A stretch of DNA of 64,000 bases from an uncultured Actinomycetota bacterium (lineage in GTDB: Bacteria; Actinomycetota; Actinomycetes; CAVWCF01), in NCBI GenBank assembly GCA_963753435.1, contig CAVWCF010000001.1:922711-986710 (forward strand), given 5' to 3'. Positions within the stretch are counted from its first letter, which is position 1, and every line of letters begins with the position of its first letter. A program made the translations under genes and the position numbers. The notes below the pieces were generated by a model. That model did not search any database. It had not been told where the DNA came from and was given only the letters and a program-made list of their open reading frames with translations. Below are positions 2,476 through 56,113 of this stretch, piece by piece.

Positions 2476-4203
2476 CTAGCCCGGGTAGGCGACCTCGGTC
2501 GCGGATCCCTCCGCACGCCAACCGAAGCCGCGATCCACCCACACCTGCGAGTTGGCGGTTACCGCCAGCAGCGGGCGGGCCGGCGCCGCCGCGAGGCTGC
2601 GTACCTCCGGCAGCGAGCCGGGGGCGGTGACCGCGAAGTTCGGATCGATGAGGAACGGCTCCAGCGTGCCCCGTTCGCTGCGCGCCAACACCGCCAGCCG
2701 CGTGGCATTGGCCCAACTCACCTGCCGGACGTCGACGAGTTCGGACTCCAGGCGGCGCAGGGCCCCGATCCGGATCCCATCAGCTTCCCGCTCAATGCGG
2801 GCAACGAAGAGCAACCCCCGACCATCCTCCTCGAGGATGACCGCGGCCCGAGCGCCGTCCCGGGCCATCCGGAAGTCCAGGACGCGCCGACCCTGCAACT
2901 CATCGGCTTCCACCCGCTCGGGCGAACCGCCTAACTGCACCCGCCACACGGCCGCACCGGAACCAGTCCGGTCCACCACCCACACGGTGTCAAAGGGGTC
3001 CCAGGTTGGCCGGGTCAGGTCGGTACCGGAAAGGACCGGCTCGGCCGTGAAGGTCTCCCACTGCCCCACGAGCAGGTCCGGCCCGTTCAATGTCGCAGCC
3101 GCCGAACCGTCCAGCGACACGGCCACCGATCGCGGCGTCAACGAACCATCACCCAACGGACCGGGAACCGGCTCGGCGGAATCCCCGACGCCGGACACCA
3201 GCGCCCCGTCCACCACCGCGTAAGCAGTCGCGTCGGCGGGCAGGCCGTCGGGATCGAAGGAGGGCCAGGCGTCGCGGCTTTGCACTTCGTCAGCACCGGG
3301 GACAGCAAGGGCGGAATCCCCGGCGCGGATTCGCACACCAGTGACCTCGGGCAACTGGCGCAGGGTCCAAACCAGTTGTGCCGACAACTGCCTGCGCGCT
3401 TCCGGCCCGGCGCTGAGTACGTCCGCGGACAACTGCACGGTGGCAATACCGTCGGCGATCGGGGCGGCCGCCGCGGTCAGTGACGTGCCCGGGGGGAACG
3501 CGGTAGTGACCGCCGGATCCAGCCACGGAGTCGGCCCGGCCAACAGGGCGCGGACCAAGGTCGTCGAAACCCCGGGCAGCGCGGCCGGAACGACCACGTT
3601 GTCAGGCACCAGACGCACGCCAGAGGCGTCGACGAACATCAGGCTGAACGAGCGGAAGGCGCGGGCCACGTCCAGCGTCGAGAGCAGCAGGCCGCTGGGC
3701 AGTCGACTGATGCGCCACTCCCCGTCGACCTGCCGCAGGTCGTAATCGGCCCGGACCTGCGCGCCGGCGCCCGAGGCCGCGTACTCGCCGCGGCCGGAGA
3801 TCTTGGCGACCTCGCCGGCGGTCAAAGCCACGGCGACTTCGGACGACTCGGTCAGGTCCAGGCTGGTCGGGTCATACACGACCGTGCCGATCGATGTGTC
3901 CCACGCCTCCCGGATCTCCGGCGCCAAGTACTGGCGGGCAACCTCATGGTTGGACTCGAAGGCGGCCGAGGCAGCCAGGAAACCCTCCACGATCTGCATC
4001 TGATCCGCCCCCGGCGCCGGCGGCCGCGCCAGGACCCGGATGAAGGCGCCGGCCTCGCGATCACCGCCAACCGCCTCACCCTGCCGGACCGGGCTGCTGG
4101 TGGGAATGGCCGCGCATCCGGTGAGGAGGACCGCCGCCGCGGCCACCAGCGCGACCAACGTCCAAGCCGGTCGGCGAGCCCAGCCGCCGCCGATGGCGTT
4201 CAC
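2476..4203 (-). CDS. lpqB: Lipoprotein LpqB (MtrAB-associated)
   Basis: Signal peptide with lipobox LLTGC. 575 aa. Stop overlaps the mtrB gene by 4 nt. Position downstream of mtrB is conserved across actinobacteria. Confidence 0.85.
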   Translation of the reverse strand: MNAIGGGWARRPAWTLVALVAAAAVLLTGCAAIPTSSPVRQGEAVGGDREAGAFIRVLARPPAPGADQMQIVEGFLAASAAFESNHEVARQYLAPEIREAWDTSIGTVVYDPTSLDLTESSEVAVALTAGEVAKISGRGEYAASGAGAQVRADYDLRQVDGEWRISRLPSGLLLSTLDVARAFRSFSLMFVDASGVRLVPDNVVVPAALPGVSTTLVRALLAGPTPWLDPAVTTAFPPGTSLTAAAAPIADGIATVQLSADVLSAGPEARRQLSAQLVWTLRQLPEVTGVRIRAGDSALAVPGADEVQSRDAWPSFDPDGLPADATAYAVVDGALVSGVGDSAEPVPGPLGDGSLTPRSVAVSLDGSAAATLNGPDLLVGQWETFTAEPVLSGTDLTRPTWDPFDTVWVVDRTGSGAAVWRVQLGGSPERVEADELQGRRVLDFRMARDGARAAVILEEDGRGLLFVARIEREADGIRIGALRRLESELVDVRQVSWANATRLAVLARSERGTLEPFLIDPNFAVTAPGSLPEVRSLAAAPARPLLAVTANSQVWVDRGFGWRAEGSATEVAYPG

Positions 4204-5858
4204 GTTGCGGCCCGTCCCGCGGCTGCCGACGCCGCCGACGCCGACTTGTCGTCTCCTTCGGCGTCCTCCGGCAGCAGCGGCAGCGGTGATGACTGCAGGT
4301 CCACGCCGGCTCGTTGCGGCAGGGTGAGCCGGAAGTGGGCGCCCCGGCCGGGCTCACCCCACGCCTGCAGCCAGCCGCCGTGCAAGCGGGCATCCTCCAG
4401 CGCGATCGCCAACCCCAGTCCGGTGCCACCGGTGTTCCGCGCCCGAGCCGGGTCTGCCCGCCAGAAGCGATTGAAGACCAGCGACGACTCCCCCGGACGC
4501 AGACCCACGCCGTAGTCGCGAACTCCGATCGCGGCAGCACCATCACCGGTTGCCACCGTAACTACGACATCTCGACCCTCGCCGTGCTCGATGGCGTTGA
4601 CGACAAGATTGCGCAGGATTCGGTCAACACGCCTGGAGTCCACTTCGGCCAGACATGGCCGCTCGGGCACCTGCAGGCGCACGGACGTGGAACGCCTGGC
4701 GGCTAGGGGTTCGCAGCCTTCAGCCACCCGTCGCGCCAGCGACCGTAGATCGATCTGCTCCCGCTCCAGGATCACCGCTCCGGCATCGTGCCGACTGATT
4801 TCCAGCAGATCCGAGAGCAGCGCCTCGAAGCGGTCGAGCTGGTCCTGCAGCAACTCCGCCGAGCGGCGAGTCCCGTCATCGAAGGAGTCGCTGGCCTCGT
4901 GCAATACATCCGCGGCCATTCGAACCGTGGTCAGTGGCGTGCGCAGTTCGTGGGAGACGTCGGACACGAATCGCCGTTGCACCCGCGACAGGTCCTCCAG
5001 CTGGCGGATCTGCCGCTCCAGACTGGCGGCCATCTGATTGAACGACGTCGCCAGCCGGGTCAAGTCGTCTTCACCGGATACCACCATGCGCTCCGACAGC
5101 CGACCGGCGGAGAACTCCTCTGCGATGCGCGCCGCCTTTCGCACCGGGTCGGTCACCTGACGTGTCACCAGCCAAGCGATGCCACCGAGAACCAGCAGCA
5201 GGACGACACCAGCAGCGATCAGGGTGCGTTGCACCAGCGCGAGCGTCGATTCCTCCGCCCCCAGCGGGAAGAGGTAGTACAACTCGTAGCCCGGGGTGCC
5301 GGTCACGGCTAGTGGGGCGCCGACAACGATCCCGGCGGCGGCATCGCGGACACCGCCGAACGTGATGGTGGAGTAGGCGTAGCTCTGTACCTGGCTGGCG
5401 CGAACGGCCTCGCGCAACTCCTCCGGGACTGAGTCCGAAAGCACCAGGTTCGACCCACGCTCAGGGGCGCCCGACGACTCCGTCGACAACAGCAGCACTT
5501 CGAACAGCGGCGGCTGTCCGGCCCGGTCGGCCAGATCCGTGGCGATCTGATCGACGAGCAGGTCGAGGCTGGCGGCGTCAGTGCGGTCCGCGGCGTCCAC
5601 CAATGCCTGCGCCTGGGTCAGTCCGGCGCGCGCGGTGTCCAGACTCTGGCGCTCCTTGGCCTGCAGCAAGCCGGTCTGCACCCGGGTCAGCAGCACCTGC
5701 CCGAGGACCAGCACGACCACCACGCTCAGCCCCACGGCAGCGGCCACGACGCGGATAGTGAGCGATCGACGCCACAAGGACGTCACCCGCGCCAGCAGAC
5801 CGGCGGTCCCCGGGGAGATCCATCGTGTCGGGCCGTCCCCCGAGCGAGCCGCCATCAA
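4200..5858 (-). CDS. mtrB: Sensor histidine kinase MtrB
   Basis: Two TM segments, a HAMP region, an H-box (VSHELRTPLTTV), and N and G boxes (LVVNAIEHG, GGTGLGLAI). 4-nt overlap with the mtrA stop. Confidence 0.9.
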   Translation of the reverse strand: MMAARSGDGPTRWISPGTAGLLARVTSLWRRSLTIRVVAAAVGLSVVVVLVLGQVLLTRVQTGLLQAKERQSLDTARAGLTQAQALVDAADRTDAASLDLLVDQIATDLADRAGQPPLFEVLLLSTESSGAPERGSNLVLSDSVPEELREAVRASQVQSYAYSTITFGGVRDAAAGIVVGAPLAVTGTPGYELYYLFPLGAEESTLALVQRTLIAAGVVLLLVLGGIAWLVTRQVTDPVRKAARIAEEFSAGRLSERMVVSGEDDLTRLATSFNQMAASLERQIRQLEDLSRVQRRFVSDVSHELRTPLTTVRMAADVLHEASDSFDDGTRRSAELLQDQLDRFEALLSDLLEISRHDAGAVILEREQIDLRSLARRVAEGCEPLAARRSTSVRLQVPERPCLAEVDSRRVDRILRNLVVNAIEHGEGRDVVVTVATGDGAAAIGVRDYGVGLRPGESSLVFNRFWRADPARARNTGGTGLGLAIALEDARLHGGWLQAWGEPGRGAHFRLTLPQRAGVDLQSSPLPLLPEDAEGDDKSASAASAAAGRAAT

Positions 5859-6565
5859 CTCGAACGCGCCGAGGTCTCCGTCGGCGCTGCTGCCTTGTAG
5901 CCGACCCCGCGCACGGTCAGGACGAGCGCGGGGTGCTCGGGGTCATGCTCGACCTTGGCGCGCAGTCGTTGGACGTGGACATTCACCAGCCGGGTGTCGG
6001 CCGCATGCCGATAACCCCAAACCTGCTCAAGCAGCACTTCGCGGGAGAAGACCTGACCGGGCTTGCGCGCCAGCGCGAGCAGCAGGTCGTACTCCAACGG
6101 GGTCAAGTTGATCGAAACACCTTCCCTGCTGACCTCATGTCCGGCGACATCAATGGACAAGTCGCCGAGCGTGATCAGCTCCGAACCCGTCGGACGGTCG
6201 CTGCGCAACCGCGCCCGCATCCGAGCGACCAGCTCCTTGGGCTTGAACGGCTTGACGATGTAGTCGTCGGCACCGCTTTCCAATCCGAGAACCACGTCCA
6301 CGGTGTCCGTCTTGGCCGTCAGCATCACGATCGGGATGCCGGACTCGGCTCGAATCTGCCGGCACACGTCGATGCCGTCGGTGCCGGGCAGCATCAGGTC
6401 CAACAGCACCAGGTCCGGCTGGGCGTCGCGGAAGGCGGCCAGCGCCTTGTCACCGTCCGCGCAGAAGGAGGGCGCGAAACCTTCCCCCCGCAGCACGATG
6501 CCGAGCATCTCCGCCAGGGCTGGGTCGTCATCCACCACGAGAACTCGTGCCTGCATGGCATTCAT
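5855..6565 (-). CDS. mtrA: OmpR-family response regulator MtrA
   Basis: MNAMQARVLVVDDDPALAEMLGIVLRGEGF closely matches the MtrA N-terminus. Winged-helix C-terminus (RLRAKVEHDPEHPALVLTVRGVGY). Start chosen at the internal ATG giving a typical length of about 236 aa. Confidence 0.9.
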   Translation of the reverse strand: MNAMQARVLVVDDDPALAEMLGIVLRGEGFAPSFCADGDKALAAFRDAQPDLVLLDLMLPGTDGIDVCRQIRAESGIPIVMLTAKTDTVDVVLGLESGADDYIVKPFKPKELVARMRARLRSDRPTGSELITLGDLSIDVAGHEVSREGVSINLTPLEYDLLLALARKPGQVFSREVLLEQVWGYRHAADTRLVNVHVQRLRAKVEHDPEHPALVLTVRGVGYKAAAPTETSARSS

Positions 6566-6639: not shown

Positions 6640-7596
6640 ATGAGCCAGCCAACTCAGGCCTGGGGGCCTTGGCCGGACGGGGACGCCGGGGGCCAATGGC
6701 CGGCTTCGGACCGACCCGACCACCCCCCGGCCCAGGTCGACGGCGGCCGGCCGGTCGGGGAGATCCTCGAGGGCGCCATCAAGACGGTGCTGAGCGGACC
6801 CCGCGTGCTCGTCGGCGGTGCGTTGCTGGTGGTAGGCGGGGTACAGGCAATCGTGCTGGTGACGGTGTGGTTGCTGGCCGGCAATATCGACTTCACCGAC
6901 GCAAGCGTTACCGCTGCCGAAGTCGCACGACTGAGCGCGGCGGCAGCCGTGGCCGTACTCGGGTCCTGGACCGTGTCGGTTGCCATGACCGGGCTGGGGG
7001 CTGCCGCTGCCGCGGAGTGGACAGCAGGACGTCCGATCACGCTCGCGGCCGTAGCGCCGCGGATTCGACGACGGCTCGGGCGGCTGATCCTGGCGCTGAT
7101 CGTCGCCGTCGGATTGCCGCTGGGCGTGGGGATCACCGTCGCTGCCGCGGCAGTGCTGCTGGCCATCACCGTCGGGGGGATCGCCGGCTCGCTGATCGGC
7201 GTGGTCGGGGTGTCCGTGGGGATCGGGGCTGGTCTGTGGCTGGCCATCCGGCTGGTGCTGTCCCCGGTCGCAGCCGTGCTGGGTTCGGCAGGCGCCGCCG
7301 TGGCGGTGCGCGAGTCGTGGGGCGTGACCCGGAGGCACTTCTGGCGCGTCCTGGGTTTCATCGTGCTCAACGTGCTACTTACGCAGACCGTCACCGCTGT
7401 CGTGGCCGCGCCCCTGGGCGTGATCGTGTCGGAGAACCCCGAGGCGTTCAGCGGCGCAGCGGTGATCGGCGGCGCGGTCACCTCTGCGGTGGCGGTGACG
7501 CTGACCGCCCCGTTCACCGCCTGCGTTACCGCTTTGCTCTTCCTGGACCTGCGGGACCGGAACGGATCGACTCAGCCGCGGCCATCCGTGGGCTAG
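6640..7596 (+). CDS. Gly/Ala-rich polytopic membrane protein, unknown function
   Basis: Several long hydrophobic helices ([19 protein letters not shown]...; [35 protein letters not shown]...). Divergent from mtrA. It occupies the slot where M. tuberculosis has tmk. Confidence 0.5.
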
Positions 7597-17897: not shown

Positions 17898-18081
17898 CGC
17901 GATTCCTCTCGACCCAGCCACCATGGGACGGCGGCGTTAGGGGGTATTACATGCTTGTCATTCACGTGCGGTCAAGAGGAAGAGCCAATCTGCGGTGGAC
18001 TAACGACCCGAAAACGCCTGAATCATGCCTAATCCGGTCAAATCATCTGATCGACGGCGCCGGCCCGCCAGATGAGCCGGA
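17898..18081 (-). promoter_or_regulatory. AT-richer intergenic region upstream of whiB (putative promoter and 5' leader)
   Basis: 184 bp between the fbiC stop and the whiB start. It is noticeably lower in GC than the surroundings (cattcacgtgcggtcaagaggaagagccaatc...aaatcatctgatcg). Confidence 0.4.
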
Positions 18082-31665: not shown

Positions 31666-34025
31666 CGCGCGCTCCGAGCAGACAGGATCAGCACGCTGTC
31701 GGACACCGCCGCGGGGCCGCCGGCAATCGTGAGACTGCGAGCCCGGTCATCCAGCCATTGCTGCGTAGCCGATGGCAGCGCAGTCGGGGTGACCAGGACG
31801 ACCGATCGCCCCAGTGCCCCGGCGGCCAGCGCGTCAGCCAGGTTGGCCGTCATGCCACTGGCGACAACGGCCAAATCCGGCGCTGTTGCGAAGGAGAAAC
31901 CGTTGGCGACGGCGACCGCGGTTGCATAGCGGTCCGCCCCACCGAGCCGGGCGGCCTTGGGCAACTGGGTTCGCACCGTTTCCGAGATGACGCCAGTGCT
32001 GCCAATGACCGAAGTGGCCGTCGTGCCCAACGCGGTCAGCGCTTGCTTGGTTGCCGCTGGAACCTCGTTCTTGCGGGTCAGCAGGATGGGCCGACCGGAG
32101 GCCGCGGCCGGACCTGCTGCCGACAAGGCGTCGACCAAGGAGGCGTCCTCACCGGATGCAACCACCGCGGCCGTTCCGGTCGGCGCCAGCGCTTCGGCCA
32201 CCAGGCCGGCAGTTGCGAAGCGGTCGGCTCCGGAGATCTGAGTTACCGCGGCGCCAAGCGCGCGGACCTCGTTCAAAACCGTGGCCTGCAACGCGCCTAC
32301 CACGTAGACCTTGGTGGCACCGCGGCTGAGCAGTTCCGAGCGAACTGCTGGCGGGAGCTTGTCGTTGGCCGACAGCAGGACCGGTGCACCCAACTTCTTC
32401 GCGAGTGGGGCGACCACGAGCCCGTCGACGAGATTTCGCTGTTCACCGCTGACGAGGACGACGGTCTTCGCGCTTGGCGCCGCCTCGCGTCCCAGTGCCA
32501 CGGCCGTGGCCCAACGGTCGGACCCCCCGGACCGCGACGCATTCGGGCAGGCCAGGCTTGCCCCGGCACTCTTCAAGACCGTGTAGTAGTACTGCAGCGG
32601 ACGCGACGTGCTGCCGGAGCCGGAAGCTGTCAGCGTCAACCGGAACCGGCCGATGCCTGCGGACGCGCCGCTGTCGGTCTTGCCGTCCCACGGGATCAAC
32701 CACGAACCCGCCCCGGCGTCCCCCGACCAGGTGCGCACTGTGGCTCCCGCGCAGAAGTCCTCCACGCGCAGCTGCCAGGACTGCGGAATCGAGGATGTCG
32801 CGCGGATCCTGGCAACGGCCGACCCCAACACGCCCGAGCCGGAGTCGAAGCTCGGGTTGAACAGGGCGGCCCCGATCAGCGAACGGGCGGCGCTGCGAAT
32901 CGCCGACAGTTGGGAGAAGAGGTAGCGCCCCGGGCAGGCAGTGGAACCCACGTCGCGATGGGCCGCAAGCACCGGGATGGTCGCCTTCTGCCCGGCGGAG
33001 TACTTCGAAGTGCCGCCACCGCTGCTGGTCAAAGTCACCGAGCCAGTGGGGTCGCGGTGGAAAAGGTCCAGTTTCCAAGCAGCCACCCGCGATATCCCCT
33101 GCACCAGACCTGAGGTCGGAGAAGCGGTATCGAGGTTGCCGAGCGCAGCAATCGCGAAGGTGTCCGTGTTGAACCCACCGGTCGCGCCACTCTGCACGGC
33201 CTTGTCGACGCCACCGGCGCGACCCTCGTAGATGCGGCCCGCCTGGTCGACGAGGAAGTTATATGGGATGTCGGAGTAGCCACGGCTGTTAACCGAGTAC
33301 GCGTAGATGGCGCGAATGTCCTTGGCGGCGTCTGCCTGCGTCCAGCCCGACTTCTGCCAGTAGCTGTTCGACGACGCGGTGTGGTGCACGAAGCCGGCCC
33401 GGATCGTCGACATGTACTTGGGGCTGCCAGAGCGAAGCGACTCGTCAGCACCCCACTGGGCCCGGGACACGAATGCCGGGGTCGTTGCGGCTGCTTGCGC
33501 GCTGCTCACCGGAGTGGGAGTTATGGCGCCGTCGGCCGGCGAGGACCCGGGATCGATCAGTTCTACGCGAAGGTCCTTGGGCAACGCCTGCCCGCCGGCG
33601 ACAACACGCACCTGCACTGCGTCGGAGTCCGGAGCGAGCAGTGGCTCGGTGCCGCCTCTGGTGACCTGTTGGCCTTCCTCGCTGTTCGCATCCGGGCTGT
33701 CGTCGGACTGGTGTAGTTCGACCCACTCACCCCATTCGCCGCCGACCCGAGTCCGCACCTCGAACTCACTGCCGACCGGCTCGCGGCCGGACCAGGTGAT
33801 CCCGACGAGCCGGAACGGCTGCTCTGCCTCATGCGTGACCGTAGGCACAGACCCCGAGTCAGCGGCGAGCGAACTGGCTCCGGACGCCGTCAAGGAGACC
33901 TGCTCCACTACCGGGCTGACCGGTCGCGGCTTGGCCACGGCTGGCGTTGCCACTGGCAGGACCAAGACGGACCCGACGATGCCCGCTGCGGTGAGTGTGC
34001 TGAGCCAAATCCGTGGGGACAACAT
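31662..34025 (-). CDS. N-acetylmuramoyl-L-alanine amidase (Amidase_2/PGRP domain) fused to three CWB2 repeats
   Basis: Signal peptide MLSPRIWLSTLTAAGIVGSVLVLPVATPAVA. PGRP/amidase_2 block (FVSRAQWGADE...AGFVHHTAS...YNFLVDQAGRIYEGR). Three C-terminal CWB2 repeats. 4-nt ATGA overlap with the downstream SpoIID gene. Confidence 0.8.
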   Translation of the reverse strand: MLSPRIWLSTLTAAGIVGSVLVLPVATPAVAKPRPVSPVVEQVSLTASGASSLAADSGSVPTVTHEAEQPFRLVGITWSGREPVGSEFEVRTRVGGEWGEWVELHQSDDSPDANSEEGQQVTRGGTEPLLAPDSDAVQVRVVAGGQALPKDLRVELIDPGSSPADGAITPTPVSSAQAAATTPAFVSRAQWGADESLRSGSPKYMSTIRAGFVHHTASSNSYWQKSGWTQADAAKDIRAIYAYSVNSRGYSDIPYNFLVDQAGRIYEGRAGGVDKAVQSGATGGFNTDTFAIAALGNLDTASPTSGLVQGISRVAAWKLDLFHRDPTGSVTLTSSGGGTSKYSAGQKATIPVLAAHRDVGSTACPGRYLFSQLSAIRSAARSLIGAALFNPSFDSGSGVLGSAVARIRATSSIPQSWQLRVEDFCAGATVRTWSGDAGAGSWLIPWDGKTDSGASAGIGRFRLTLTASGSGSTSRPLQYYYTVLKSAGASLACPNASRSGGSDRWATAVALGREAAPSAKTVVLVSGEQRNLVDGLVVAPLAKKLGAPVLLSANDKLPPAVRSELLSRGATKVYVVGALQATVLNEVRALGAAVTQISGADRFATAGLVAEALAPTGTAAVVASGEDASLVDALSAAGPAAASGRPILLTRKNEVPAATKQALTALGTTATSVIGSTGVISETVRTQLPKAARLGGADRYATAVAVANGFSFATAPDLAVVASGMTANLADALAAGALGRSVVLVTPTALPSATQQWLDDRARSLTIAGGPAAVSDSVLILSARSAR

Positions 34026-34044
34026 TCCTCCGTCATTCCTCCGT
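34023..34044 (-). repeat. Perfect 11-bp tandem duplication covering the Shine-Dalgarno sequence and the ATG of the amidase gene (minus strand reads acggaggaatg acggaggaatg)
   Basis: Read directly: cattcctccgt at 34023-34033 and again at 34034-34044. Only the promoter-distal ATG (complement of 34023-34025) is in frame with the amidase ORF. Confidence 0.85.
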
Positions 34045-49957: not shown

Positions 49958-50735
<778 letters not shown>

Positions 50736-50758
<23 letters not shown>

Positions 50759-51617
50759 GCTCCCTGGACAAGAAGGCCCAACTCCCGACCAGCAGGGCGA
50801 TGATCGGCCACACGATCGCGCCCACGATCATGCCCGTGGTGGGAGAGGTAGCCCGAACCATGAGTTCACCCAAGCTCCCCATCAGCCCGAACAATGGGTT
50901 CAGTTGGAGCAAGACGAGCAGGACCGGGTTGTCCTCAAGCCGGTCCAGCACCAGTTCTGGCAACCAGATGATCGGGGATACGTACAACCAAATCCGCAGG
51001 AGGTACGGAAGGAAACTGGTCGTGTCGCGGAAGTACACCTGAAGGGTCGCCATCAGCATCGCCAGGCCAGACGCGAAGACGACCACGAGCCCAAGCAGCG
51101 GGATGGTCCACAACTGGATCCAGCCGAACGGCAGACCGGCGAATACATGGATCACGCCGTACACGGCAAGAGTCGGCAGGAACCGGTAGAACGCTGTCCG
51201 GACTGCGGAAAGCGGCAGCAACACCCGAGGGAACGCCGTGTTGGTGATCATCTTGCCGGCGCTGACGACGCTCGTTGCCCCACCCGACATTGACTGCGCG
51301 ATGAAGTAGAAGGTGAACAGACACAGGAGCAGGTGCGGGAAGAACGCGGCGTCGGAACTTATGTCGCGACCACCGATGATCACGATCAGCAGCCAGTAGA
51401 CGCAGGCCAGCAGCAGCGGATTCAGGATGTTCCAGATCCGCCCCAGCACGGTGAGGCTCTGCTGGGCCCTGGCGGTGGCTCGGGACAACTCCGCCGCGAA
51501 CTCGCGGCGGCGCCAGGCCTCAGACAAATAGGGACCAAGCGGCGGCAACCCAGCCCGATGGGGTGCATAGACGTGGTGATCGCCCAGGAAATCCACGTCA
51601 GGGGCTGCTGAGCGCAC
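50736..51617 (-). CDS. ABC-2-type polysaccharide exporter permease (TagG/Wzm/KpsM-like)
   Basis: Six TM helices. The N-terminal cytoplasmic segment and helix pattern are typical of ABC-2 permeases. 23-nt overlap with the ATPase gene. Confidence 0.8.
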
Positions 51618-51691: not shown

Positions 51692-52828
51692 CTAGGGCGC
51701 GGCAAGCGCCAAAGCCTGCACGAGCCTGGGCCCATCCACGTCCCAAGACAGTTCGGGTTGGGCCGCGGCAACGGCGGCGCACAGCTCGGCATAGTTGGTC
51801 CGGGCCGCTTCGACCGCCGCAGCCAGCGACTTGTGGTCGCCCGGGCGGTAAAGCGTGCCGATGCCGTATCGGCGGACCACGGCCGCAAGTTCATCCACGT
51901 CAGTTGCCACCACGGGCACACCGGCGTGGATCGCGTGGAAGAGCTTGTTGGGCAGAGCCAGGCGGTGGTTCTCCCACCGATCGGAGTGAGACACCAGCGC
52001 CAAGCCGGCCGCCTGCAGCCGCTTCGTCACCTCATCCACCGGTTCGGCGCCGAGCACGGTCACCTTCCCGGTTCGTAGGCGCGCCAAGAACTGCTCGTCG
52101 GCGGGACCGAGCAGGGTGACCGGCAGGTCCAGCAATTCCGCTGCCTCGATCGCCACCTCGATTTCCCGGTCGGCCGCGATGCGGCCCGCGTAGACGAGTC
52201 CGGTCGGCTCGGGGATTGGTTGCAGCTGCGCATTCAACGGAAACGTGTTGCGGACGACTTCGACGTTGTCCCAGCCGTAGCGGCGCCGGAGGGCGGCTGC
52301 AACTCCCTCCCCGACAGTGATGACTACGCGTGCTTGACCACCTAGTACCCGTTCCTGCGCGATCTCTCTGCGGTTTGCCAGCGGCGTTGGGCGGCCTTGA
52401 CGCGGTCGCCCAGGCCAGTACTCGTGCGTGTCGTACACGTACGGCACGGCGCTGGCCCGGGCCAGTTCCGCGCCGACGGCCAACGCGGTGAAGTCGTGAG
52501 CATGGACAACGTCGAATTCGCGCCCTTGCGCGTCCGCGTGCGCGGCTTCGGCCCAGGCCCCGAAAACCGCGGCTCGATGCCGCGGCAGCAGAAGCCACCT
52601 GGCCACCCGGTACAGCAGGGTCGTGCGCCGAACGCGGGCCGCAGTCGCTGGCAGCGTCGGCTGATCCCCCACGCTCGACACGGTGACGCCGGCCGGGGGA
52701 ACGAAGTCGCCTGGAACCGCCCGACCGATCACGTGCACGGCGTGGCCGGCTTCGGCGAGGGTCTGTGCCTCACGAAGCACTCGGGTATCAGTGGCGACGG
52801 ACGTCGCCACAAGCATGAGGATCTTCAC
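51692..52828 (-). CDS. GT4-family glycosyltransferase
   Basis: GTG start VKILMLVATSV, GTGA-overlapping the upstream GT2 stop. C-lobe NKLFHAIHAGVPVVATD (E-x7-E region). Confidence 0.75.
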   Translation of the reverse strand: MKILMLVATSVATDTRVLREAQTLAEAGHAVHVIGRAVPGDFVPPAGVTVSSVGDQPTLPATAARVRRTTLLYRVARWLLLPRHRAAVFGAWAEAAHADAQGREFDVVHAHDFTALAVGAELARASAVPYVYDTHEYWPGRPRQGRPTPLANRREIAQERVLGGQARVVITVGEGVAAALRRRYGWDNVEVVRNTFPLNAQLQPIPEPTGLVYAGRIAADREIEVAIEAAELLDLPVTLLGPADEQFLARLRTGKVTVLGAEPVDEVTKRLQAAGLALVSHSDRWENHRLALPNKLFHAIHAGVPVVATDVDELAAVVRRYGIGTLYRPGDHKSLAAAVEAARTNYAELCAAVAAAQPELSWDVDGPRLVQALALAAP

Positions 52829-53796
52829 CGGCGCGCCAGCCTTGCCGGACTGGACAGGAAGCCCCATCCCCAGGCCAGGTGCATCACCGGCAATACGACC
52901 GGGAGACGAACCGCGCTGCGCCAGGCAAGCCGACTGCCGATGACCGCGCTGCCGCCGAGCACGACGAGGGCGTATCCGCCCGGCAACAACCACCCGACAC
53001 GAAGGCCCAGCAGCCCGGCGGCAGTGCCGGCGACGACACCGACCAGCGCCATGGGCGGAGCCAGGTACCGGAAGGTGACGGTGCCGCGATGCTGCCGGGC
53101 AACGACCCGCCGCCACCTCCCATAGTCGCGATATTGGCGCGCCAGCGCCCGGACGGTGGATCGGGGTCGGTACGTCACCCGCAGCCGCGGCGTGAACCAG
53201 ACGGTGCCACCGGTCTGCCGGATCCGATGGTTCATCTCCCAGTCCTGCGCCCTGGCGAAGCCCTCGTCGTACCCGCCGACTCGTTGCAGGGCCGCACGGC
53301 GGAAGGCGCCCAGGTAGACGGTGTCGGCGGGGCCCTCCGCGCCGCCGGTATGGAAGCGGGCCGCCCCCACCCCCAGCGGACTGGTCATGGCCGCCGCCAC
53401 CGCCGCTTCAAATGGGGTCGTGCCCTCAGCCGCCATCACGCCACCCACATTGTCCGCACCCGTGGACTGCAGCACCTCCACCGCGACGCGCAGGTAGTCG
53501 GGCGGGAAGAGCGCGTGTCCGTCCACGCGAACCACCAAATCGTGCTCGGCGGCCCCGATGGCGGCATTCAGCCCGGCCGGGGTTGCTCCAGTGGGATTCG
53601 GGACCAGTCTGATCCGTGGGTCCGTTGCGCTCAGGTCCCGGGCGATCACGTCCGTGCCATCGGTCGACGGCCCCAGGGCCAGGATCAACTCCCACGGGCC
53701 GGGGTAATCCTGCCGTTGGATCTGGGTAACGGACTCGGCCAGGTGCCGCTCCTCATTGAGAACCGGCATCACCACTGAGACGGGCGGCCAGGACAC
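52825..53796 (-). CDS. GT2-family glycosyltransferase with C-terminal membrane helices
   Basis: VSVVMPVLNEERHL ... DxD-type region VVRVDGHA ... C-terminal hydrophobic helices (LAPPMALVGVVAGTAAGLLGL...). Confidence 0.8.
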   Translation of the reverse strand: MSWPPVSVVMPVLNEERHLAESVTQIQRQDYPGPWELILALGPSTDGTDVIARDLSATDPRIRLVPNPTGATPAGLNAAIGAAEHDLVVRVDGHALFPPDYLRVAVEVLQSTGADNVGGVMAAEGTTPFEAAVAAAMTSPLGVGAARFHTGGAEGPADTVYLGAFRRAALQRVGGYDEGFARAQDWEMNHRIRQTGGTVWFTPRLRVTYRPRSTVRALARQYRDYGRWRRVVARQHRGTVTFRYLAPPMALVGVVAGTAAGLLGLRVGWLLPGGYALVVLGGSAVIGSRLAWRSAVRLPVVLPVMHLAWGWGFLSSPARLARR

Positions 53797-53834
53797 GGCC
53801 GAACCGTATCCGGGCAGCGCGTCGCGCAGATGAA

Positions 53835-53856
53835 TGTCACGTTCTTGTCACGTACG
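53835..53856. promoter_or_regulatory. 11-bp-phased direct repeat tgtcacgttct/tgtcacgtacg (OmpR-family, MtrA-box-like candidate operator) in the divergent GT2-LCP promoter region
   Basis: Read directly at 53835-53845 and 53846-53856. The repeat lies in a locally AT-richer 148-bp divergent intergenic region, about 90 bp upstream of the LCP start. Confidence 0.4.
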
Positions 53857-53944
53857 CTGTGCCTGGCCAGGTTTGGCGGGAACCGTCCGGGGGCATCATG
53901 CGCCCAAGTAGTGCAGACATGGCACGACCCCGCCTGCAGGAGCC

Positions 53945-55516
53945 GTGACCGACGTCCCACAGCCGGCCGCTGGCGAGTACGGCGCGGCAGATCAAGGAGA
54001 GCGCGTGAGCAGTGGAGTGGGTGCCGCGCCGTCGGCTGCTCCAGCGCTTCCCCCGGAGTTGGACCCACGGCAGCCACCGCGCCGCAACTGGGTGCTTCGG
54101 GGTCTAGCCGGTGGCGTCAGCGCTGCGATCGTGGCGGCGAGCCTGTTCGGGTACATCACCTTGAACTACTACGACGACAAGATCACCCGGATCGACAACG
54201 TCTTCGCCGGTCGCGATTCGGATCGGCCGGTCAAGGTCGCGACCGAGTCGATCAACATTCTGCTGGTCGGGTCCGACAGCCGGGAAGGACTCACCCGCGA
54301 AGAGATCTCCCAACTCAAGGTGGGCATCGAGGGCGGACCCGACGGCAGCGGTCGCCGTGCCGACACCGCGATCCTGATGCACCTGGACTCCGACTGGTCC
54401 CGGGCGACCTTGGTGAGCTTCCCCCGTGACTCCTTGGTCGACATCCCCGAGTTCACCGACTCGGACGGGAGCACCACCCGAGCTCAGCAGAACAAGCTGA
54501 ACGCCGCTTATGCCATCGGCGGCCCGCAGTTGCTTGTGTCGACGATCGAGCAGAACACGGACCTGCGCATCGACCACTACGTCGAAGTGGGGTTCGACGG
54601 CTTCGTGAAGGCCGTGGACGCCGTCGGCGGAGTCGATGTGTGCACCGAGGAAGCGATCAGCGACCGGCGCTCCGGTCTCGAACTGGCTGCCGGCGAGAGT
54701 CGACTGGACGGCGCCCAAGCGCTGGCATTCGCACGCGCCCGCTACTTCGACCCGACCGCGGATATCGGCCGCATGCAGCGGCAGCAGCAGTTGCTGGCCT
54801 CGCTGTTCAACGAAGCGACGTCGACCGGGGTGCTGTTGAACCCCCTGCGACTGAACGGCCTGCTCGACGCCACGCTGTCCTCGATCTCCACCGACCCCGG
54901 GTTCGACCGTCAACTCATGCTCAACCTCGCTACCAAGATGCGTGATGTCGCCGGCGGCGAAGTCGTCTTCACCACCGTGCCGATCGGTGACGCCAACAAC
55001 CGGATCGAGGGCATCGGATCCACCGTGGAGTGGGACGAGCAGGCCGCTGAGGAGTTGTTCCGCGCCATCCGCGAGGACCAGCCCATCGGGTCGCAGTCAG
55101 AGGAGGCGGCCGCGGCGGCCCCAAGCACCACGCCGGTCGTCTCAGTCCCACCGGGGTCAATCTCCATGAAGGTCCTGAACGGTGTGGGCACAGCGGGACT
55201 GGCCCGGCAGTCGGCCGACCAGCTGGCGGCCCTCGGGTTCTCGGTAACCGGCGTCGGCGACGGAGAACGCGTCACGGCCACGGAGATCCGGTACGACCCG
55301 CTGTGGGACGAATCGGTCAAGACCGTTGCCGCGGCACTGCCGGGCGCCCGGCTGGTGCCGGTGCCGGGCCAAGGCGGCACCTTTGTTGTCGTGATCGGCG
55401 ACGCGAACCAAGCGTTCCAGCCGGTAACGGTCCAGGCGGCCGCCGACGAGCCGGCCCCAACAGCTTCAGAGTCGGCAGCACCGGTCCGGTCCGCCGCCGA
55501 CCCGCTCTGCGGCTGA
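53945..55516 (+). CDS. LytR-CpsA-Psr (LCP) family glycopolymer-peptidoglycan ligase with C-terminal LytR_C domain
   Basis: N-terminal TM anchor. LCP core (INILLVGSDSREG...RADTAILMHLD...SFPRDS...LNAAYAIGGPQL...FARAR). C-terminal LytR_C-like domain (KVLNGVGTAGLARQSADQLAALGF). Confidence 0.85.
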   Translation: MTDVPQPAAGEYGAADQGERVSSGVGAAPSAAPALPPELDPRQPPRRNWVLRGLAGGVSAAIVAASLFGYITLNYYDDKITRIDNVFAGRDSDRPVKVATESINILLVGSDSREGLTREEISQLKVGIEGGPDGSGRRADTAILMHLDSDWSRATLVSFPRDSLVDIPEFTDSDGSTTRAQQNKLNAAYAIGGPQLLVSTIEQNTDLRIDHYVEVGFDGFVKAVDAVGGVDVCTEEAISDRRSGLELAAGESRLDGAQALAFARARYFDPTADIGRMQRQQQLLASLFNEATSTGVLLNPLRLNGLLDATLSSISTDPGFDRQLMLNLATKMRDVAGGEVVFTTVPIGDANNRIEGIGSTVEWDEQAAEELFRAIREDQPIGSQSEEAAAAAPSTTPVVSVPPGSISMKVLNGVGTAGLARQSADQLAALGFSVTGVGDGERVTATEIRYDPLWDESVKTVAAALPGARLVPVPGQGGTFVVVIGDANQAFQPVTVQAAADEPAPTASESAAPVRSAADPLCG

Positions 55517-56038: not shown

Positions 56039-56113
56039 GGTGTGGAACCCTAACGTTCAGGTCACGAGTGTCCGATGGACATTGCGGGCGATTCGCGGCG
56101 CGAGGAGTTGGTA

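Follow-up and report, generated by a model that had tools for sequence, protein, structure and literature searches.

A candidate OmpR-family operator of MtrA-type form between a wall-glycopolymer operon and a divergent LCP gene in an uncultured actinomycete

Is a short, helically phased direct repeat, placed between the divergent genes of a GT2 glycosyltransferase and an LCP ligase in an uncultured actinomycete, a regulatory site, and if so, which protein would read it? The repeat occupies positions 53835-53856 of a 64-kb stretch of genomic DNA from an uncultured Actinomycetota bacterium (the whole stretch of 64,000 nucleotides that was analysed, hereafter the window), and a reading of the sequence alone, hereafter the sequence-only reading, had proposed it as an operator for MtrA or another OmpR-family regulator. 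Here, we found that the repeat is very probably a functional cis-element. We further judge, with a probability of roughly 0.55-0.6, that it would be the operator of an OmpR/PhoB-family response regulator, specific to its lineage. MtrA would be the single most likely candidate for this regulator, ahead of a PhoP/RegX3-type protein and then of a GlnR- or AfsQ1-like one, an assignment that we make only tentatively. The element is thus described as a new instance of a well-known, ordinary kind. Its two units are as follows.

53835-53845, plus strand: direct-repeat unit 1, TGTCACGTTCT, the half-site nearer to the GT2 promoter, without change among five distinct relatives
53846-53856, plus strand: direct-repeat unit 2, TGTCACGTACG, the distal half-site, with relatives having either T or G as its first base

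The units start 11 bp apart and are identical at 8 of 11 positions, and they stand in the local order ...CAGATGAA TGTCACGTTCT TGTCACGTACG CTGTGCC...; sequence and coordinates of the two copies had been given exactly by the sequence-only reading. The octamer TGTCACGT occurs at exactly two places in the window, both of them within the repeat. Counted from the GT2 start, the GTCAC core of unit 1 (53836-53840) lies at -40 to -44 and that of unit 2 (53847-53851) at -51 to -55. The half-sites are direct and not inverted, since a 20-nt stretch of the site, compared by eye with its own reverse complement, shows little symmetry, and their layout is the one typical of the OmpR/PhoB family, i.e. direct half-sites of 6-7 bp with a spacer of 4-5 bp, about one helical turn. 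That the repeat sits in AT-richer DNA holds for its core, where the guanine plus cytosine content of 53826-53860 is 48.6% (below the 1st percentile of 35-bp windows, at a window mean of 68.9%), but not for the spacer as a whole, which at 65.5-67.3% versus 68.9% for the window is barely AT-richer.

The significance of the repeat derives from its intergenic location and its conservation, and not from repeat statistics. Contigs of close relatives were obtained by a search with the GT2 protein and from the cluster of LCP proteins at 90% identity.

L081: GT2 identical to that of the window
L082: GT2 92% identical to that of the window
L083: GT2 87% identical to that of the window
L084: GT2 83% identical to that of the window
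L085 and L086: LCP within the 90% cluster of the window; both share one spacer
L087: contig ends short of the repeat

The footprint alignment comprises five distinct spacer versions, with GT2 proteins 83-100% identical, and no conserved non-coding block of the spacer is longer than the one that covers the repeat.

53832-53854: footprint GAATGTCACGTTCT[T/G]GTCACGTA, with 22 of 23 columns invariant

Across the 208-column spacer, 49.5% of the columns are invariant among the five versions, and shuffling of columns gives p ~1e-4 for the footprint block. The 14 nt directly to the right of it are scrambled in every relative. Its sole variable base precedes the second GTCAC and lies outside the GTnAC core; with a position weight matrix (PWM) built from the published table of Streptomyces coelicolor MtrA sites and scored on 17-mers across the window, the T to G change seen in relatives raises the score from 15.3 to 17.8 bits, toward the G preferred by the S. 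coelicolor MtrA model. The GTTCT spacer between the half-sites is likewise invariant in the relatives. Relative to the flanking non-coding DNA, the half-sites therefore bear the mark of purifying selection. No relative carries an indel between the repeat and the GT2 start; on the LCP side, the distance to the start codon differs by as much as ~20 nt. Presence of the motif at related promoters had been put forward as a test of the proposal, and all five close-relative versions have kept it.

Which of the two divergent genes would the site serve? The geometry points to the GT2 side, where the following features are found.

52825-53796, minus strand: GT2 (ExoA-like) glycosyltransferase gene (PF00535), first gene of the operon, with a GTG start at 53796
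51692-52867, minus strand: GT4 glycosyltransferase gene, downstream in the operon
50736-51617, minus strand: ABC-2 permease gene, downstream in the operon
49958-50758, minus strand: Wzt/TagH-like ATPase gene, downstream in the operon
53803-53808, minus strand: putative -10 element TACGGT, 6 nt upstream of the GTG, in the invariant block 53799-53810
53826-53831, minus strand: expected -35 position, ATCTGC, variable among relatives and without a conserved hexamer

The four genes lie on one strand, overlapping or tightly spaced, and by its predicted products this GT2-GT4-Wzm/Wzt operon is one for the synthesis and export of a wall glycopolymer. The GT2 start codon is GTG 53796, because downstream of it the five relatives differ only synonymously, with the peptide (M)SWPPVSVVMPVLNEE in all of them, and because upstream of it an in-frame TGA (53848-53850, inside repeat unit 2) is found together with non-synonymous noise. 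The invariant block 53799-53810 contains ACCGTA, the reverse complement of TACGGT, which conforms to the TANNNT rule for actinobacterial -10 elements. A -10 element close to the start codon without a Shine-Dalgarno sequence is the signature of leaderless transcripts in mycobacterial and streptomycete promoters. Since TACGGT ends 6 nt before the GTG and no Shine-Dalgarno sequence is present upstream of it, the GT2 transcript is apparently leaderless and would start at about 53796. Three relatives at ~70% GT2 identity (L088-L090) keep GGATA(G/C)CGT 9 nt before the GT2 start codon, the counterpart of GGATACGGT 6 nt before the GTG of the window.

With +1 at 53796, the putative operator would span -40 to -55 and abut a promoter that lacks a -35 element; a scan for consensus promoters and terminators found no sigma-70 type -35/-10 pair and no terminator. 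A conserved -10 without a conserved -35, as we read it from the sequence, is the layout of an activator-dependent promoter, and a tandem site bordering on an absent -35 is classical for activation of the OmpR/PhoB type. A comparable layout would be that of the F3/C3 sites of Escherichia coli ompF/ompC, which occupy about -40 to -60 and where a tandem dimer site next to a poor -35 recruits RNA polymerase. Unlike the present site, a putative single dimer site, those sites belong to an array of three and have a different half-site sequence. Activation from tandem sites that coincide with or adjoin -35 is known for actinobacterial OmpR/PhoB regulators: in a cryo-electron microscopy structure, tandem dimers of Mycobacterium tuberculosis PhoP occupy the -35 position or the DNA beside it and contact sigma region 4 and the beta flap (PMC11825685). 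The site would thus primarily be an activator site for the GT2 operon, and we infer activation rather than repression. Of the earlier suggestion that wall-polymer ligation and the GT2 operon may be under MtrA or other OmpR-family control, the part on the GT2 operon is favoured, its promoter coming first by geometry, and the stress on LCP is not established. The reading of the spacer as an RNA element was rejected, with no Rfam family beyond a weak chance match and no stable predicted structure (folding z-scores of +0.8 and +0.4).

We propose that a winged-helix regulator of the OmpR/PhoB family would bind as a head-to-tail dimer to the two GTCAC cores, one helical turn apart. Once phosphorylated and bound immediately upstream of -35, the protein would bring in RNA polymerase and thereby switch on the GT2 operon. 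The putative operator is ~150 bp upstream of the divergent LCP gene, which would possibly be co-regulated. In the most specific version of this mechanism, MtrAB-LpqB would directly activate the GT2-GT4-Wzm/Wzt operon, and possibly LCP, via a recently gained near-perfect box at a -35-less leaderless promoter, a proposal that we regard as rather doubtful.

In favour of MtrA, the leading candidate, are a match in form and the presence of the protein, which is encoded in the window as follows.

5855-6556, minus strand: mtrA (Pfam; NCBIfam MtrAB_MtrA equivalog)
4200-5858: mtrB (Pfam), which follows mtrA
2476-4203: lpqB, which follows mtrB

The MtrA protein of the window scores 382.6 bits with the NCBIfam MtrAB_MtrA equivalog model against a cutoff of 300, and published MtrA consensi should apply to it because its recognition helix ADTRLVNVHVQRLRAKVE and its wing LTVRGVGYKA are identical to those of M. 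tuberculosis MtrA (PDB 2GWR). These consensi are GtnAcC-n5-GTnAcn for S. coelicolor (PMC5650626, PMC13189361) and, for M. tuberculosis, a GTCACAgcg direct repeat, or c-G-T/A-n-A-C/T-c, with an 11-bp period (PMC6265350). The repeat core, the sole perfect GTNAC-N6-GTNAC of the window, matches the published MtrA consensus perfectly, with two direct GTnAC half-sites 11 bp apart centre to centre, and its 17-mer has the top PWM score in the window, 15.3 bits, against a median of 15.2 bits for the sites in the table itself. The OmpR-family tandem of MtrA-box form that had been proposed for this site is thus borne out in architecture and core, and 'MtrA-type operator' is a reasonable description of form. 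As in the MtrA boxes of M. tuberculosis and of Streptomyces coelicolor and venezuelae, GTnAC half-sites at 11-bp spacing lie upstream of envelope-related genes; unlike in those, the present putative site is unusually perfect (8/8 core positions) and also has an invariant spacer.

Several observations weigh against an operator, or against MtrA as its reader. To begin with the statistics, exact repeats of at least 8 bases at 11-bp spacing number 3 in the window against ~2.9 expected from base composition. A perfect GTNAC-N6-GTNAC occurs once in the 64 kb, at 53836-53851, with 0.76 expected per shuffled window, and with one mismatch allowed there are 15 matches against 21 expected. The PWM score of the repeat is attained by 25% of shuffled windows. 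Taken alone, the repeat is not significant and is no more than expected by chance. Part of the conservation signal, in turn, could stem from core-promoter constraint, the entire stretch from the repeat to the GT2 start being fairly conserved. Furthermore, the motif fails to distinguish MtrA: GTnAC-n6-GTnAC is also the GlnR motif derived from chromatin immunoprecipitation (ChIP) in S. venezuelae (PMC3087709) and the footprint consensus of AfsQ1 (PMC6988585), and PhoP/PhoB boxes are close to it. With GlnR, AfsQ1 and proteins of the PhoP type all recognising almost this sequence, GTnAC-N6-GTnAC is no basis for assigning a site to MtrA.

Known and candidate targets of MtrA give a similar picture. 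Table S3 of the M. tuberculosis MtrA ChIP-sequencing study lists whiB2/fbiA and not the orthologous Rv3265c-Rv3267. Within the 64-kb window, the mtrA and whiB promoters have no motif at 0-1 mismatch, and no second conserved copy was found at other candidate MtrA target promoters; a match at 6859 was discounted as it lies inside a coding region, and a second operator CTAACGTTCAGGTCAC at 56050-56065 was rejected as a chance match, its GTCAC half not being conserved in L083 while its flanks are. We found no report of MtrA control of LCP genes in the literature searched. Of the control by MtrA or another OmpR-family protein that had been suggested, the OmpR/PhoB-type form and the match to MtrA boxes are supported, and the assignment to MtrA, though plausible, is weakened by the shared motif, the ChIP-sequencing targets and the distant loci considered below.

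Two of these places in the window deserve a short description. The site at 56050-56065 (reverse complement GTGACCTGAACGTTAG) lies between a 4HBT thioesterase gene and a CWB2 gene and resembles the operator, spacer included; the adjoining GTGTGGAACCCTAACGT is conserved. The region upstream of whiB (17925-18081) contains TTGTCATTCACGTGCGGTCAAG, with TTCAC and GTCAA pentamers at 10-bp, not 11-bp, spacing, a weak match at best.

Is the repeat a common element of divergent GT2-LCP loci? The arrangement itself is widespread and found in Streptomyces, Yinghuangia, Motilibacteraceae, acI Nanopelagicales and many metagenome-assembled genomes. GTNAC-N6-GTNAC is absent at up to 1 mismatch from 62 of 62 distant GT2-LCP spacers (Streptomyces, Yinghuangia, acI Nanopelagicales and others), and at up to 2 mismatches from all three relatives at ~70% GT2 identity (L088-L090). 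On this sampling the element is restricted to a narrow lineage (GT2 at least 83% and LCP at least 90% identical), since none of the 65 more distant loci carries the motif; over this wider range, the test at orthologous promoters thus turned out negative. The present site differs in this respect from the MtrA-box systems, whose orthologous loci are not listed as targets in M. tuberculosis and are without the motif in Streptomyces. In L088-L090 the position of the operator, ~27-45 nt upstream of the GT2 -10, is taken by another conserved element, CCGGTGCCACGCCGTACGG, in which GTGCC and GTACG stand 10 bp apart and which could be a diverged counterpart or the site of another factor.

A metagenome scan for GTCACGT-N4-GTCACGT matched at least 120 contigs, essentially at random, and is uninformative on the regulon; none of the matches listed came from this lineage. 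A near-identical tTGTCACGTTTTTGTCACGTt was seen in several unrelated mid-GC metagenome contigs (L113, L114, L127, L134, L163, L178), and the same repeat, phased at 11 bp, may serve as an operator in other phyla as well.

How, then, do other explanations of the repeat compare with an OmpR/PhoB-family operator? The repeat might have no function at all and be there by chance, or as what is left of an 11-bp tandem duplication, and this is what one would read from a count of 8-mer repeats that equals expectation, from the quarter of shuffles that attain its PWM score and from distant relatives without the motif. We consider it very improbable, however, as 22 of the 23 block columns are invariant where adjoining non-coding bases are scrambled and the proteins differ by up to 17%. 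The conserved bases could instead form a core-promoter element, e.g. an AGAAC-N16-CGAC promoter of an extracytoplasmic function (ECF) sigma factor on the GT2 strand or a UP-like element, or the site of a factor from another family. Indeed, AGAAC and CGAC are both invariant and 16 nt apart while the 7 nt before CGAC vary, the invariant GTTCT spacer goes beyond the need of a pure half-site model, and conservation is high all along the stretch that joins the repeat to the GT2 start. An ECF promoter would, however, leave the invariant distal half-site unexplained, and the TANNNT at leaderless distance, kept over a wider phylogenetic range, makes a -10 of the housekeeping sigma factor the simpler choice; we therefore hold explanations of this group to be unlikely, and to rank behind a PHO box. 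A promoter of the ECF41 type, which has the pattern TGTCACA-N16-CGTC, was rejected, as no CGTC follows 16 nt downstream of either unit and the region is hypervariable in relatives. A CRP/GlxR palindrome (TGTGA-N6-TCACA) and a DnaA box (TTGTCCACA) were both rejected on a poor fit by eye.

The remaining alternatives keep the operator and change its reader. The E. coli pho box, bound by PhoB at CTGTCAT-N4-CTGTCAY, has the core TGTCA with an 11-bp period, and the repeat has an identical core at the same period. A PHO-box-type site for PhoP/RegX3, through which phosphate limitation would switch on a phosphate-free wall-glycopolymer pathway, also has a precedent in S. coelicolor, where PhoP activates two phosphate-free wall-polymer clusters from divergent promoter regions (PMC3479208), and the UDP-sugar dehydrogenase and 2-epimerase genes of the window are of a type typical of uronic-acid polymers. 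Streptomyces PHO boxes consist of at least two direct-repeat units of 11 nt, G(G/T)TCAYYYR(G/C)G (PMC2275107), which unit 2 (GGTCACGTA in L082/L085, TGTCACGTACG in the window) fits at 9-10 of 11 positions, and the present site shares with them the 11-nt direct-repeat units, a (G/T)GTCA(C/T) core and, by its predicted position, an operator of two units beside -35. In two-unit PHO boxes, however, G1 and T/G2 are essential and GTTCAY is the rule (PMC2275107), whereas position 1 of unit 1 is T in every relative and positions 7, 9 and 11 are off as well; no phosphate-regulon genes are nearby, and compared with PHO boxes overlapping -35 the site would be placed about one turn farther upstream. We thus consider a PHO box an unlikely identity. 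Less likely again, and behind the core-promoter explanations, is another OmpR-family regulator that reads GTnAC, such as GlnR, an AfsQ1-like protein or an uncharacterised lineage-specific one. The published GTnAC-n6-GTnAC motif of GlnR and AfsQ1 (PMC3087709, PMC6988585) is identical to the repeat in core consensus and spacing, the afsQ1/sigQ site TGTCACAGAGCTGTCAC is likewise of the form TGTCAC-N5-TGTCAC, and the lineage specificity of the site would suit such a regulator. Yet the regulons of GlnR and AfsQ1 cover nitrogen assimilation and secondary metabolism (antibiotic and developmental genes) and not wall polymers, the genes at which the present site is found, and MtrA is both universal in the phylum and envelope-related.

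On the other side of the spacer, the gene start and a second conserved block complete the locus.

54005-55516, plus strand: LCP family glycopolymer-peptidoglycan transferase gene (PF03816, LytR_cpsA_psr, and PF13399, LytR_C; TIGR00350)
53994-53999 and 54005-54007, plus strand: ribosome-binding site AAGGAG and GTG start of LCP, with AGGAGAG.GCGTGAGCAG invariant in all relatives
53870-53907: conserved 'block A', GGTTTG.C.GGAACCG..C.GGGGCA...TGCGCCCAA, the second conserved block of the spacer

Pfam matches agree with the flanking genes as first named, GT2 on the minus strand and LCP, whose product attaches wall glycopolymers to peptidoglycan, on the plus strand. The intergenic region has to be corrected: the 148 bp given by the sequence-only reading correspond to an LCP start at the first GTG, 53945, but the invariant AAGGAG, the 503-amino-acid LCP gene calls of related contigs and the divergence of 53945-54004, which is rich in substitutions and indels among relatives, place the start at 54005 and make the spacer 208 bp long. 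Block A is separated from the repeat by a constant 14-15 nt in every relative, and the stretch between block A and the LCP ribosome-binding site varies in length. The block may be the promoter of LCP (a GGAAC-type -35 or CANNNT -10), or another protein may bind there.

The window begins with hpf, lpqB, mtrB, mtrA, sahH, manA, pmm, DUF5719, a large GT2 and whiB, and after whiB continues with fbiC/A/B, sugar-nucleotide genes, CWB2 wall hydrolases, the exporter, GT4, GT2 and LCP, an order which we take to mirror the conserved actinobacterial order of M. tuberculosis Rv3244c-Rv3267. The presence of mtrAB-lpqB in the same window, to which attention had been drawn, is confirmed, but at 47 kb from the repeat it gives no regulatory clue, because it reflects this ancient, conserved synteny. 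Inserted in the order is a large block of genes for CWB2-domain wall proteins (SpoIID, amidase, S-layer-like) and for glycopolymers. Positions 34023-34044 hold an exact tandem duplication of the 11-mer CATTCCTCCGT, which on the minus strand reads ACGGAGGAATG twice, i.e. a doubled Shine-Dalgarno sequence and ATG at the 5' end of an amidase-CWB2 gene, where the second ATG opens the signal peptide MLSPRIWLSTLTAAG...

Only a confirmed control of wall-glycopolymer assembly by MtrA would lift the site above modest interest; if true, a link from MtrAB-LpqB to a wall glycopolymer would be one that is unreported for M. tuberculosis, Corynebacterium glutamicum and Streptomyces. If a regulator binds here, the site would also be an example of regulon turnover, with a near-perfect operator where the orthologous promoters of Streptomyces, acI and mycobacteria are without it. 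It would then offer a handle on how an uncultured actinomycete couples the synthesis, export and ligation of its wall glycopolymer to an environmental or envelope signal.

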